This document shows, piece by piece, positions 34,138-39,353 of a DNA stretch of 45,413 nucleotides. Under the pieces are notes generated by a model. That model was given only the letters and a program-made list of their open reading frames with translations. It made no database searches and was not told where the DNA came from. The DNA is from a virus. Taxonomy: Duplodnaviria; Heunggongvirae; Uroviricota; Caudoviricetes. The stretch lies in the IMG/VR virus record IMGVR_UViG_2522572021_000012; one strand, written 5' to 3'. Position 1 is the first letter of the stretch, and every line of letters begins with the position of its first letter. The position numbers and the translations under genes are program-made.

Positions 34138-34179
34138 TGAACCGCCCCGGTTTTCCTGGAGAGTGTTTTATCTGTGAAC

Positions 34180-35067
34180 TCAGGCTGCCAGATCATCGTT
34201 TCTGATGGAAGCATAATAAGCTTTTTCTGCTTCTGCCGGAGGGATATGACCCAGCCTTCCCAGCAATCGTCGATTGTTATACCAGTCCACCCACGTGAGT
34301 GTGGCCAGTTCCACTTCTGCACGGTTTTTCCAGCTCTTACGGTGTATTACCTCCGCTTTGTAAAGACCATTGATGCTCTCCGCCATCGCGTTGTCATACG
34401 AGTCACCTGTACTCCCTGTTGATGCCAGCAGTTTTGCTTCTTTTAGTCGCTCCGTATAGGCCAGTGATACATACTGAGAACCTTTATCACTGTGATGGAC
34501 TGTGCCGGACGGCCGACGGGCCCACAACGCCTGCTCCAGTGCATCCAGCACGAATGTCGTTTCCATAGACGATGAGACTCGCCACCCCACGATACATCCG
34601 GCAAACACATCAATGATGAACGCCACATAGACGAAGCCCTGCCATGTGCTGACGTAAGTAAAATCAGCCACCCACAGCTGGTCAGGACGTTCTGCCACGA
34701 ACTGACGGTTTACGCGGTCGCCTGCGGAAACGGCTTTCCGGCTGACGGTAGTACGGACCTTTTTACCCCGGAGAACACCGGCAAGTCCCATAACCGCCAT
34801 GAGGCGCGCCACTGTACATCTGGCCACCCTGATACCTTCGCGTAACAACTGGCGCCAGACTTTACGCACACCGTACACCTGATGATTTTCATCGTATACG
34901 CGCTGTATCTCTCTCTTCAGCCAGTCATCGCGCTGAGCACGGGCACTGCGTTTATCAGGATGATGTCGCTGTTGCTGACAGTGGTAATACGTTGACGGGG
35001 CAATATGCAGTTCACTGCATACCGGTCCGACCCCGTACTGCTCACGCAGCTTATCCAGCAGCGGCAT
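34180..35067 (-). CDS. IS3-family transposase OrfB (DDE integrase domain)
   Basis: 295-aa ORF; recognised as IS629-type OrfB; ~97% identical to the copy at 38418-39308. Confidence 0.8.
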   Translation of the reverse strand: MPLLDKLREQYGVGPVCSELHIAPSTYYHCQQQRHHPDKRSARAQRDDWLKREIQRVYDENHQVYGVRKVWRQLLREGIRVARCTVARLMAVMGLAGVLRGKKVRTTVSRKAVSAGDRVNRQFVAERPDQLWVADFTYVSTWQGFVYVAFIIDVFAGCIVGWRVSSSMETTFVLDALEQALWARRPSGTVHHSDKGSQYVSLAYTERLKEAKLLASTGSTGDSYDNAMAESINGLYKAEVIHRKSWKNRAEVELATLTWVDWYNNRRLLGRLGHIPPAEAEKAYYASIRNDDLAA

Positions 35068-35393
35068 TATTTTTTCCAGAGGCGGTCGAACTCCGCCTTC
35101 GCAAAATAAGCGGAAGCCTGGCGAAGGATATCGTTACTGCGGCGCAGTTCACGATTTTCACGTTCCAGCTCTTTCAGACGCTGACGTTCAGCGGTGGTGA
35201 GTCCACCATCACCACTCCCGGTATCCCGCTCATGCTGACGAACCCACACACGCAGAGTCTCTGGTGTACAGCCAATCTTTGGGGCAATGGAACAAATTGC
35301 CGCCCATTGTGAGTCATATTCGCCCTGACTTTCCAGAACCATACGAACTGCCCGTTGACGGACCTCGGGGGAAAAACGTGTATTTTTAGTCAT
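35067..35393 (-). CDS. IS3-family transposase OrfA (HTH)
   Basis: 108 aa, [31 protein letters not shown]; ends in an A-run overlapping the orfB start (-1 frameshift site). Confidence 0.8.
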
Positions 35394-35448
35394 CCTGTTT
35401 ACCTCTTTCTCAGGGAGTTTAGTCTCCAGGATTCCCGGGGCGGTTCAC

Positions 35449-35595
35449 TCTGGTTGCGTCAGAGCAGACAAAGCAGCATCACTCGGAAGCCTTCGCTGCA
35501 AGAAGGCAGATGAATGCAGTGGAAGTGTTTGCCTGCCAAACGTAGCTATTTACGCGGCAGGATACCGGAAATCAAAACAACTGACGGCGAGGTAA
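35449..35595 (+). pseudogene. N/gp24-like antiterminator, 3' part
   Basis: Frame continuous with the 5' part once the IS and one 3-bp repeat are removed; ends AIYAAGYRKSKQLTAR, recalled as similar to the P22 gp24 C-terminus. Confidence 0.6.
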
Positions 35596-35823
35596 GTGGT
35601 GAATCAGACATACATTCCATCATGCTTGAGAAATCTGCCAAAGCAGAAAGCAAAGCCCCGCAAGCAAGCCATAAAGGACGCTAAGTCAGAGGTTATTGAT
35701 CAAGCAATACAATTGCTCAGGGAGGAGTTAAGAAGTGGCAAGCTCGAAGGAATGATGATTCCCTATCAGCGCGGATATCTATCGGCGATTAGTAAGTTGG
35801 AAGTATTGAAGAGTGAATTATGA
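35596..35823 (+). CDS. hypothetical protein (GTG start)
   Basis: 75-aa ORF immediately after the N-like stop. Confidence 0.45.
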   Translation: MVNQTYIPSCLRNLPKQKAKPRKQAIKDAKSEVIDQAIQLLREELRSGKLEGMMIPYQRGYLSAISKLEVLKSEL

Positions 35824-35885
35824 ACTATCTGGAATTTCCGGATGGTTCATTGTTTTGGCAGCAAACCACTTATTTTAGGTGATAT

Positions 35886-36068
35886 ATGGGAAAAGATGAA
35901 AATATCATCGTCGAGGATGTGTTCCATCAAGACTATGGTCCTGAGGATGGCATTCCGCATCATTGGTGCTGCAAGTTTTATCGTGATGGATTTGCTGATT
36001 ATGAATACTTCAGCACTAAGGATGAGGCATACGATTTCGCCTTTAAAAATGGATATAAACCATTCTGA
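35886..36068 (+). CDS. hypothetical protein
   Basis: 60-aa ORF with AGGTGA RBS. Confidence 0.4.
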   Translation: MGKDENIIVEDVFHQDYGPEDGIPHHWCCKFYRDGFADYEYFSTKDEAYDFAFKNGYKPF

Positions 36069-36830: not shown

Positions 36831-37436
36831 ATGAGCAAAGAATTTTACGCAAGACTGGCAGCTATTCAGGAGAATCTGAACGCGCCAAAGAACCAATACA
36901 ACTCATTCGGCAAATATAAATACAGAAGCTGCGAAGACATTCTTGAGGGTGTTAAGCCGCTACTGAATGGCCTGTTTTTATCAATCAGCGATGAAGTTGT
37001 GTTGATTGGTGATCGGTATTACGTGAAAGCCACGGCAACTATTACCGATGGCGAAAACAGTCATACGGCAACCGCCCTTGCACGAGAGGAAGAAAGCAAG
37101 AAAGGAATGGATTCTGCACAAGTTACTGGAGCTACAAGCTCTTATGCACGCAAGTATTGCCTCAATGGTTTGTTCGGCATAGATGATGCGAAAGATGCAG
37201 ATACAGACGAGCATAAACATCAGCAGAACGCAGCAGCAAAGCAATCAAAGCCATCACCTACACCTGAACAGGTTTTAAAGGCATTCACTGACGCAGCAAT
37301 GCAGAAAAACACCGTAGAAGAGCTTAAACAGGCGTTCGCCAAAGCGTGGAAGATGCTCGAAGGCACACCGGAGCAGCACAAAGCGCAGGACGTTTACAAC
37401 ATCAGACGAGATGAATTAGAAGGAGCGGCTGCTTAA
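36831..37436 (+). CDS. erf: single-strand annealing protein, P22 Erf-like
   Basis: Start at MSKEFYARLAAIQENLNAPKNQYNSFGKYKYRSCEDILEG within ORF 36801-37436; recognised as P22 Erf. Confidence 0.75.
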   Translation: MSKEFYARLAAIQENLNAPKNQYNSFGKYKYRSCEDILEGVKPLLNGLFLSISDEVVLIGDRYYVKATATITDGENSHTATALAREEESKKGMDSAQVTGATSSYARKYCLNGLFGIDDAKDADTDEHKHQQNAAAKQSKPSPTPEQVLKAFTDAAMQKNTVEELKQAFAKAWKMLEGTPEQHKAQDVYNIRRDELEGAAA

Positions 37437-37819
37437 TGGCACATTCGATTACTGTAAGACTAAACAAGCCCGCAAGAGAGTTTCAGGCCGGGGAAAATAT
37501 CGGATTTAACATCCGTGCTGGCGTTCAGTATTACGACCGCCAGACTAAAAAGAAAGAATGGACAAACTACAGCGCCGTTATATTTGCCAAGCCGGGAGCG
37601 CAAGCGGATTACTACCGTAGCGTTCTGGTTGAGGGTGGCATTGTGGAAATTACCGGAGAAAACATCAGGGTTGATGTTTATCAGGGGCAAAATGGTCAAT
37701 CAATCACTCTTGAATTACTGAATGCAAAGATTGGATTTGCAACTTCAGGAAACAGCCCGCAGCAGCAAAGTAGTAACCAGCAGAACACTCCTGTATACGA
37801 CGATTCCATCCCATTCTGA
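37436..37819 (+). CDS. SSB-like single-stranded DNA-binding protein
   Basis: 127 aa; Gln-rich linker and C-terminal YDDSIPF resembling the SSB acidic tail (DDDIPF); ATGA-coupled to erf. Confidence 0.55.
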   Translation: MAHSITVRLNKPAREFQAGENIGFNIRAGVQYYDRQTKKKEWTNYSAVIFAKPGAQADYYRSVLVEGGIVEITGENIRVDVYQGQNGQSITLELLNAKIGFATSGNSPQQQSSNQQNTPVYDDSIPF

Positions 37820-37842
37820 TTTATAAAAATAAGGATTTAATT

Positions 37843-38040
37843 ATGCCAGCGCCTCTGTATGGTGCGGATGACCCGCGCCGCTGTTCCGGCAATTCCGTAT
37901 CGGAGGTGCTGGATAAATTCAGAAAAAACTACGATCGAATAATGTCTCTACCGCAGGAAACGAAAGAGGAAAAGGAATTTCGCCACTGTATATGGCTTGC
38001 AGAGAAAGAAGAACGCGAGCGAATTTACCAGACATCAATC
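37843..38040 (+). pseudogene. hypothetical gene, 5' part (66 codons) interrupted by IS copy 2
   Basis: ORF 37843-38043 ends at a TGA supplied by the first three bases of the IS. Confidence 0.55.
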
Positions 38041-38094
38041 TGAACCGCCCCGGGAATCCTGGAGACTAAACTTCCTGAGAAAGAGGTAAACAGG

Positions 38095-38421
38095 ATGACT
38101 AAAAATACTCGTTTTTCCCCTGAAGTCCGTCAACGGGCAGTCCGTATGGTTCTGGAAAGTCAGGGCGAATATGACTCACAATGGGCGACAATTTGTTCCA
38201 TTGCTCCAAAGATTGGCTGTACGCCGGAGACTCTGCGTGTCTGGGTTCGCCAGCATGAGCGGGATACCGGGGGCGGTGATGGAGGGCTCACCACCGCTGA
38301 ACGTCAGCGTCTGAAAGAGCTGGAGCGTGAAAATCGTGAACTGCGCCGCAGTAACGATATCCTTCGCCAGGCATCCGCTTATTTTGCGAAGGCGGAGTTC
38401 GACCGCCTCTGGAAAAAATGA
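38095..38421 (+). CDS. IS3-family transposase OrfA
   Basis: 108 aa; differs from copy 1 OrfA at a few residues. Confidence 0.8.
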
Positions 38422-39308
38422 TGCCACTGCTGGATAAGCTGCGTGAGCAGTACGGGGTCGGACCGCTATGCAGCGAACTGCATATTGCCCCGTCAACGTA
38501 TTACCACTGTCAGCAACAGCGACATCATCCGGATAAACGCAGTGCCCGTGCGCAGCGCGATGACTGGCTGAAGAAAGAGATACAGCGCGTATACGATGAA
38601 AATCACAAGGTATACGGTGTGCGTAAAGTCTGGCGTCAGTTGTTACGGGAAGGTATCAGAGTGGCCAGATGCACTGTGGCACGTCTCATGGCGGTTATGG
38701 GACTTGCCGGTGTTCTCCGGGGTAAAAAGGTCCGTACGACCATCAGCCGGAAAGCCGTTGCCGCAGGCGACCGCGTAAACCGTCAGTTCGTGGCAGAACG
38801 ACCTGACCAGCTGTGGGTGGCTGATTTTACTTACGTCAGCACATGGCAGGGCTTCGTCTATGTGGCGTTCATCATTGATGTGTTTGCCGGATACATTGTG
38901 GGGTGGCGGGTCTCATCGTCCATGGAGACGACATTCGTGCTGGATGCACTGGAGCAGGCGTTATGGGCCCGTCGACCGTCCGGCACGGTCCATCACAGTG
39001 ATAAAGGTTCTCAGTATGTATCGCTGGCCTACACACAGCGGCTTAAGGAAGCCGGATTACTGGCATCAACAGGAAGTACAGGCGACTCGTATGACAACGC
39101 GATGGCGGAGAGCATCAATGGTCTTTACAAAGCGGAGGTAATACACCGTAAGAGCTGGAAAAACCGTGCAGAAGTGGAACTGGCCACACTCACGTGGGTG
39201 GACTGGTATAACAATCGACGATTGCTGGAAAGGCTGGGCCATACTCCTCCGGCAGAAGCAGAAAAAGCTTATTATGCTTCCATCGGAAACGATGATCTGG
39301 CAGCCTGA
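38418..39308 (+). CDS. IS3-family transposase OrfB
   Basis: 296 aa; ~97% identical to copy 1 OrfB. Confidence 0.8.
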
Positions 39309-39353
39309 GTTCACAGATAAAACACTCTCCAGGAAACCCGGGGCGGTTCAATC

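Follow-up and report, generated by a model that had tools for sequence, protein, structure and literature searches.

Two IS629-group insertions in the early-left operon of the sbcB prophage of Escherichia coli O145:H28

The IMG/VR virus record IMGVR_UViG_2522572021_000012 (Caudoviricetes; 45,413 nucleotides, called the window here) carries two insertion sequence (IS) elements in inverted orientation, one on each side of a phage recombination module with erf and an SSB-like gene. The locus raises the question of whether this pair is a unit or the result of separate events. The original prediction, made from the letters alone, saw in the arrangement a likeness to a composite transposon or to a substrate for inversion by recombination between the copies. 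Our analysis indicates that, very probably, two IS629-group variants inserted independently into the PL operon of the sbcB prophage in the O145:H28 clone of RM13514 and RM12581.

The window was 100% identical to the chromosomes of E. coli O145:H28 strains RM12581 (from lettuce) and RM13514 (from a human). The authors of the genome listed this prophage as "Prophage 12", with a size of 45,135 bp and the location sbcB (PMC3893438, supplementary tables). The same genome contains 37 IS629 copies, and IS629 is its most abundant IS (PMC3893438). The locus is annotated in RefSeq as a lambdoid/P22-like prophage adjoining sbcB. Its gene order is divergently transcribed cro, then cI, a 122-aa open reading frame (ORF), N and the early-left genes, and the integrase gene lies just past the end of the window. 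The leftward operon of the phage runs along the + strand of the window.

Insertion sites, target duplications and split genes

A repeat finder reported a single inverted repeat pair, with arms at 34137-35447 and 38041-39351 (1311 nt, 95% complementary) and a spacer of 2593 nt. Reading of the element ends (TGAACC...GGTTCA) gave the exact limits of the two elements, named copy A and copy B, which are 1310 bp each (Table 1). The left inverted repeat (IRL), which is the orfA-side end, lies at the inner limit of each copy, and the right inverted repeat (IRR) lies at the outer limit. Repeat finding and end reading thus bore out the prediction of two 1310-bp IS629-like elements that are inverted relative to each other and whose left ends point inward.

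The state of both sites without an IS was found in the Stx2c-converting phage Stx2_5044 (LC645426.1), whose source is probably a preprint on O145:H28 Stx phages that takes the RM13514 sbcB prophage as its reference. The phage was 100% identical to window positions 26135-34136, 39348-42604 and 42601-45413, and it differed from 35448-38040 by 2 substitutions (99.9% identity). It had no IS at the N site or at the abc2 site. Its early region, from downstream of Q, corresponds to window 24703-45413, with 100% identity over 14 kb of flanks. Window 1-24702 was without a match in the first 50 kb of its 61-kb record, and its late region appears different.

At the site of copy A, Stx2_5044 reads ...GCGAAAGCT CTC TGGTTG..., and the window reads ...GCT CTT (copy A) CTC TGGTTG.... 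At the site of copy B, Stx2_5044 reads ...ACATCA ATC CGACC..., and the window reads ...ACATCA ATC (copy B) ATC CGACC.... The two junctions can be recognised by the sequences CCCGGGGCGGTTCACTCTGGTTGCG and CAGACATCAATCTGAACCGCCCC. The 3-bp target duplication of copy B is perfect (ATC/ATC), and that of copy A has one mismatch (CTT/CTC) at the base abutting the IRR end. Since both sites are empty in Stx2_5044 and each copy is flanked by a 3-bp duplication, both are simple insertions. The two copies came in by separate events, which are recent compared with the split between the window phage and Stx2_5044. Strain H1 (97% identity), in which the N site is whole and in one piece, was also tried as the empty-site reference for copy A. 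It has ATC at this place, which made the duplication ambiguous, and the point was settled by Stx2_5044.

Each insertion split a gene. The two parts of N, when rejoined, gave a 90-aa protein ending in ...LPNVAIYAAGYRKSKQLTAR (PF25694 N_peptide, 2.3e-15; phrog_271, 8e-34). The two parts of abc2 (37843-38040 and 39354-39449) gave a 97-aa protein (PF11043, 6e-64). Intact N and abc2 are the rule in hundreds of related prophages. For abc2, about 900 genomes matched at least 80% of a 600-nt IS-free junction query in one place and have the gene uninterrupted.

The bracketed segment 35448-38040 contains the 3′ end of N, two small ORFs, cIII, kil, an Arf-like gene, erf, the SSB-like gene and the 5′ end of abc2. 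Pfam and phrog matches supported the original prediction that a CIII-like gene, small early ORFs, erf and an SSB-like gene lie between the copies. All genes of the segment read along the + strand, as do the gene halves beyond the IS copies, with which they are collinear, and they follow the usual P22-like early-left order. Because N and abc2 continue in frame across the IS copies, and because the same segment lies IS-free in place in Stx2_5044, the segment is native phage DNA and not the cargo of a composite transposon.

In the explanation that we favour, two variants of a copy-out-paste-in IS3-family element entered a lambdoid/P22-like early-left operon by separate transpositions. Copy A inserted at a CTC triplet, at codon 43 of the 90-codon N gene, with its transposase genes antisense to PL. 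For copy B the target was an ATC triplet that follows codon 66 of abc2 (97 codons), and the element is oriented along PL. The segment of 2.6 kb between them kept its original order and orientation throughout, and the inverted, inward-facing geometry of the copies is incidental.

Identity and source of the two copies

Both elements belong to the IS629 group of the IS3 family, as their length, their ends, two ORFs with a frameshift, a target duplication and near-identity to known copies all indicate. Elements of this kind measure about 1.2-1.5 kb and duplicate 3 bp, occasionally 4 bp, of their target. The ends of both copies are TGAACCGCCCCGG...CCGGGGCGGTTCA, of the TG...CA type, and form imperfect terminal repeats in which IRL and IRR agree at 22-23 of the first 25 positions. 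The orfA and orfB genes are intact in both copies (108 aa and 295/296 aa). In both copies, Pfam assigned PF01527 (HTH_Tnp_1) to orfA and PF13276 (HTH_21), PF00665 (rve) and PF13683 to orfB. The overlap of orfA and orfB contains an A-run, which is GGAAAAAATAATG in copy A and GGAAAAAATGATG in copy B. The ALIL frameshift pseudoknot of Rfam was matched at full length in both copies; the scores were 121 and 120 bits, and the gathering score is 50. In the PGAP annotation, orfB of copy A carries the remark 'programmed frameshift'.

IS629 and its isoforms IS1203 and IS3411 have the length of 1310 bp, the TG...CA ends, orfA and orfB with a -1 frameshift, the ALIL pseudoknot, the HTH and rve domains and the 3-bp duplication in common with copies A and B. 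No essential difference was found, and A and B are different variants. The identity of the copies to the IS1203-annotated element of O111:H8 strain 8234 and to O157 copies was 94-96%. Both IS arms were 99.8-99.9% identical to plasmid elements that carry the annotation IS629 OrfA/OrfB (AP019707, AP019704), and 100% or 99.9% identical to copies in RM13514.

The original prediction had proposed a pairwise alignment of the copies. The ungapped alignment showed 67 substitutions (50 transitions and 17 transversions) and no indels, which corresponds to 94.9% identity. The differences were scattered over the full length of the element, and the longest identical runs were 145 bp (IS positions 1044-1188) and 91 bp. 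At the protein level, OrfA differed at 2/108 residues and OrfB at 11/295, approximately 3.2% overall. The transposase differences of 2-3% that had been predicted are real, and the figure was slightly low.

From these differences it had been concluded that the pair is not a recent duplication. The copies are indeed not derived from one another; the inference on age did not hold, the divergence being that of co-resident variants. IS629 is the most abundant IS of enterohaemorrhagic E. coli (EHEC) genomes, and near-identical or identical copies were widespread in O145, O103, O45, O26 and O157 genomes and plasmids. Copy A was 100% identical to another copy on the same chromosome (RM12581 1510103-1511412), and also to copies in many O145, O103:H2, O45:H2 and O80 genomes. 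Copy B differed from the commonest O145 variant by one silent private single-nucleotide polymorphism (IS position 333). This variant occurs in many O145 chromosomes, in plasmids and in Stx2_5044. On the chromosome of O145 strain RM9872, the copy-A-specific probe was found in 5 places and the copy-B-specific probe in approximately 39; these counts were made with variant-specific 100-nt and 70-nt probes and are figures for this related strain, RM12581 not being among the matches listed. IS629 sub-types that are 4-5% apart (>55-60 bp) are reported to co-exist in the genomes of Shiga toxin-producing E. coli (PMC3271280).

The divergence of 5% is thus that of two different co-resident IS629 variants, and not that of an old duplication. 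Since the copies are different co-resident variants, their divergence is uninformative on the age of the arrangement. Each insertion looks recent, because copy A is found at 100% identity elsewhere, copy B is one polymorphism away from a common variant, and both sites are empty in a phage with 100%-identical flanks.

Two further elements were compared with the copies. Against the O157 copy of strain 93_0495, copy A had 82 differences and copy B had 57. Against the element labelled IS1203 by PGAP in O111:H8 strain 8234, copy A had 59 differences and copy B had 52. The four IS629-group variants (A, B, the O157 type and the IS1203-labelled one) differed pairwise at 51-82 positions, and the variable sites were shared in alternating blocks. 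This block pattern suggests mosaicism, by recombination or gene conversion between IS variants.

The pair considered as a unit

The original prediction had also suggested searching other genomes for the IS-erf-ssb-IS unit. The collections searched were 5,426 complete E. coli genomes, 72,556 plasmids, 50,697 phage records and IMG/VR, and the threshold for the unit was a coverage of at least 80%. Among the E. coli genomes, the unit was found at 100% identity and in one piece only in RM12581 and RM13514, at the same locus and in the same, single orientation. No place covering at least 80% of the unit was found in the plasmids or in the phage records, and the two inner IS junction sequences were not found in IMG/VR. 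Two O157 genomes with 81-84% coverage in 4 pieces were rejected as cases of recurrence, having IS629 at other sites and erf not bracketed. With an IS-free reconstruction as the query, the E. coli genomes yielded, besides the two of the same clone, only mosaic relatives with 58-69%.

Compound transposons such as Tn10, Tn5 and Tn6330 likewise consist of two IS copies around a non-IS segment, and the flanking copies of Tn10 and Tn5 are also inverted. Had the locus such an origin, both IS copies and the recombination module would have moved in as one 5.2-kb unit. The geometry, two related IS around 2.6 kb, is the one feature that speaks for this, and we consider such an origin almost certainly wrong. 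One outer duplication, a foreign cargo and recurrence in different contexts would be expected of a compound transposon, and none of the three was found. The outer flanks, CTT on the left and ATC on the right, share no duplication, and each IS has its own instead. N and abc2 each have one half to the left and one to the right of their IS, collinear and in frame, so that the cargo is native and its border genes are split. The near-identical segment of Stx2_5044 occupies the same place without an IS, the same gene order without an IS was seen in hundreds of related prophages, and the chromosomal, plasmid and phage collections held no second occurrence. The resemblance to a composite transposon therefore did not stand as an account of the origin. 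A pair that formed in place could in principle still move now through its two outer ends and spread the Erf/SSB cassette. Both copies appear intact in orfA, orfB, the ALIL pseudoknot and both terminal repeats, and compound transposons built from copy-out-paste-in IS are known, such as Tn6330 with ISApl1 (10.1101/2023.06.07.543989). This latent mobility is nevertheless very unlikely: both outer ends are IRR, which would give an IRR-IRR circle junction instead of the normal IRR-IRL, and none of the collections searched contained the unit at a second location.

Inversion would require that RecA-dependent recombination between the copies flips 35448-38040 and that the assembly shows the majority orientation. 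The copies do offer inverted repeats of 1310 bp with 94.9% identity and with identical runs of up to 145 bp and 91 bp, which exceeds the minimal length for RecA recombination. A divergence of 5%, however, strongly lowers homologous recombination in mismatch-repair-proficient E. coli. Both deposited genomes have the segment in the same, ancestral orientation, and the target duplications are not swapped between the copies. Repeated crossing-over should leave hybrid or converted tracts, and there are none, copy A being wholly of the A type and copy B being without A-type bases. A segment that inverts between IS copies should occur in both orientations, or show exchanged duplications or hybrid IS, and none of these signs was present in the two deposited genomes. 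We regard active inversion as very unlikely. It is very doubtful, too, that the pair acts as a working unit, either as a RecA flip-flop that uncouples and recouples the Erf/SSB module from PL or as an IRR-IRR compound transposon that carries erf and ssb to new replicons. An assembly artefact, in which a single IS copy was placed twice, had been named as a possible refutation. The general difficulty of assembling multi-copy IS is the only point in its favour, and its probability is negligible. It is contradicted by the 67 differing positions, by the different flanks, each of which matches an empty site, and by the fact that the genomes of two isolates, deposited separately, have identical copies.

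Independent insertion of two variants, by contrast with these readings, is the usual pattern of IS629-driven prophage decay in EHEC and not a new mobile unit. IS629-inactivated EHEC prophages, for example those of the O157 Sakai pool, have intact IS629 in lambdoid early genes and split pseudogenes, as in the window. The O157 strains 93_0495 and CFSAN027346 have IS629 and IS600 in or beside the same early region. The O157 examples differ in having other insertion sites and deletions, and the sites of the window (N codon 43 and abc2 codon 66) are peculiar to this clone. The literature already describes the genome with its prophage and its abundant IS629, and nothing here is new in kind. The locus has little importance beyond strain-level bookkeeping, although it illustrates the erosion of EHEC prophages by IS629-group elements. 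It also carries two cautions: a block of genes with an IS copy on either side is not thereby a composite transposon, and the divergence between IS copies may reflect their source variants and not their age.

Expected effects on the operon, and related prophages

The truncated N ORF (34010-34177) encodes 43 residues of N and 12 residues from the IS. Such a product would keep the arginine-rich RNA-binding motif without the C-terminal half of the protein, and antitermination should be lost. The function of abc2 would be lost as well. Copy A would interrupt PL with 1.3 kb of foreign antisense sequence, and the hairpins upstream of cIII would not be read through. Expression of cIII-kil-erf-ssb from PL should then stop. 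The prophage is most likely defective for lytic growth and for expression of the recombination module, and would be poorly inducible or non-inducible. The stretch between the small early ORFs and cIII has two strong terminator-like hairpins with T-runs on its + strand (36067-36086 and 36213-36230), which are candidate N-dependent tL terminators of the phage.

Some points weigh against the explanation by two independent insertions with loss of N. The functional consequences, namely loss of N and a defective prophage, are drawn from what is known of lambda N. The imperfect duplication at copy A (CTT against CTC) calls for a point mutation after the insertion or for an insertion that was slightly inexact, which imprecise end-joining may have caused. 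Among the 5,426 complete E. coli genomes, none was found with just one of the two insertions, as would be needed to order the events.

The clone that carries the sbcB prophage is the clone of the 2010 romaine-lettuce outbreak. IS-typing of O145:H28 could use the two insertion sites, and the third one in Stx2_5044, as lineage markers. The coordinates of the elements, of their target duplications and of the genes around them are given in Table 1.

Table 1. Features of the two IS629-group elements and the early-left genes, in window positions
Feature	Positions	Strand	Description
N antiterminator, 5′ part	34010..34137	+	codons 1-43, arginine-rich motif; cut by copy A
Copy A left target duplication	34135..34137	.	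CTT (empty site: CTC)
IS629-group copy A	34138..35447	-	1310 bp; IRR 34138, IRL 35447; within N gene
Copy A orfB	34180..35067	-	295 aa; HTH_21 and rve DDE domains; OrfAB via -1 frameshift
Copy A ALIL pseudoknot	34996..35112	-	RF01497, 120.9 bits, model positions 1-117 of 117
Copy A orfA	35067..35393	-	108 aa; HTH_Tnp_1
Copy A right target duplication	35448..35450	.	CTC
N, 3′ part	35451..35595	+	ends ...LPNVAIYAAGYRKSKQLTAR; annotated as partial coding sequence without N-terminus
Small early ORF	35596..35823	+	75 aa; phrog_5305; function unknown
Small early ORF	35886..36068	+	60 aa; phrog_37822; function unknown
cIII	36303..36437	+	44 aa; PF08134, 2e-30; phrog_550
kil	36422..36574	+	50 aa; PF06301, 1.7e-20; phrog_2055
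Arf-like accessory recombination ORF	36650..36820	+	56 aa; phrog_1723
erf, single-strand annealing protein	36831..37436	+	201 aa; PF04404, 2e-44; phrog_155; annotated ERF family protein
SSB-like protein	37436..37819	+	127 aa; C-terminal DDSIPF; phrog_44, 1.3e-27; without Pfam match
abc2, 5′ part	37843..38040	+	anti-RecBCD; codons 1-66; cut by copy B
Copy B left target duplication	38038..38040	.	ATC
IS629-group copy B	38041..39350	+	1310 bp; IRL 38041, IRR 39350; within abc2
Copy B orfA	38095..38421	+	108 aa
Copy B ALIL pseudoknot	38376..38492	+	RF01497, 120.2 bits
Copy B orfB	38418..39308	+	296-aa ORF; rve DDE domain
Copy B right target duplication	39351..39353	.	ATC
abc2, 3′ part	39354..39449	+	codons 67-97 and stop

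Stx2_5044 has a copy-B-type IS629 of its own (positions 13845-15154 of the compared piece of its record; one difference from copy B), which lies at the equivalent of window 42602-42604 with the duplication AAC. This site is empty in the window. The window phage and Stx2_5044 together thus have three independent IS629 insertions. The 16.7 kb of non-IS sequence that they have in common contain only two substitutions (35535 and 37385), and both are within the bracketed 2.6 kb (chance P ~0.024). The substitution at 35535 is an Ala/Thr exchange in the dead 3′ fragment of N, and that at 37385 is silent in erf. Their clustering could be a coincidence or a small recombination patch. The window prophage is stx-negative, yet its early region is near-identical to that of an Stx2c phage. 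This looks like an exchange of modules between two phages, one with stx and one without, that share an integration site.

Other IS hits were seen in related prophages. A related O157 prophage (strain 93_0495) has two inverted IS629 copies around ninB-ren, and the immunity and replication genes beside one copy are missing. In the prophage of O157 strain CFSAN027346, erf is split by IS600. Both prophages illustrate how deletions accompany IS elements in this phage family. The prophage of O111:H8 strain 8234 has an identical CI protein (WP_000428318.1), an intact N and an IS1203 just downstream of N; here an IS has independently hit the same short part of the PL operon once more.

Elsewhere in the window, tRNA-Thr and tRNA-Asn lie at 24571-24726, between Q and the holin gene, and stx genes are not annotated there. 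Short direct repeats with 79-88% identity were found at 39912-39944 and 41447-41479, and at 41026-41072 and 41679-41725. They lie (39912-41725) within or beside ead/Ea22-like ORFs downstream of copy B and are probably paralogous gene segments.

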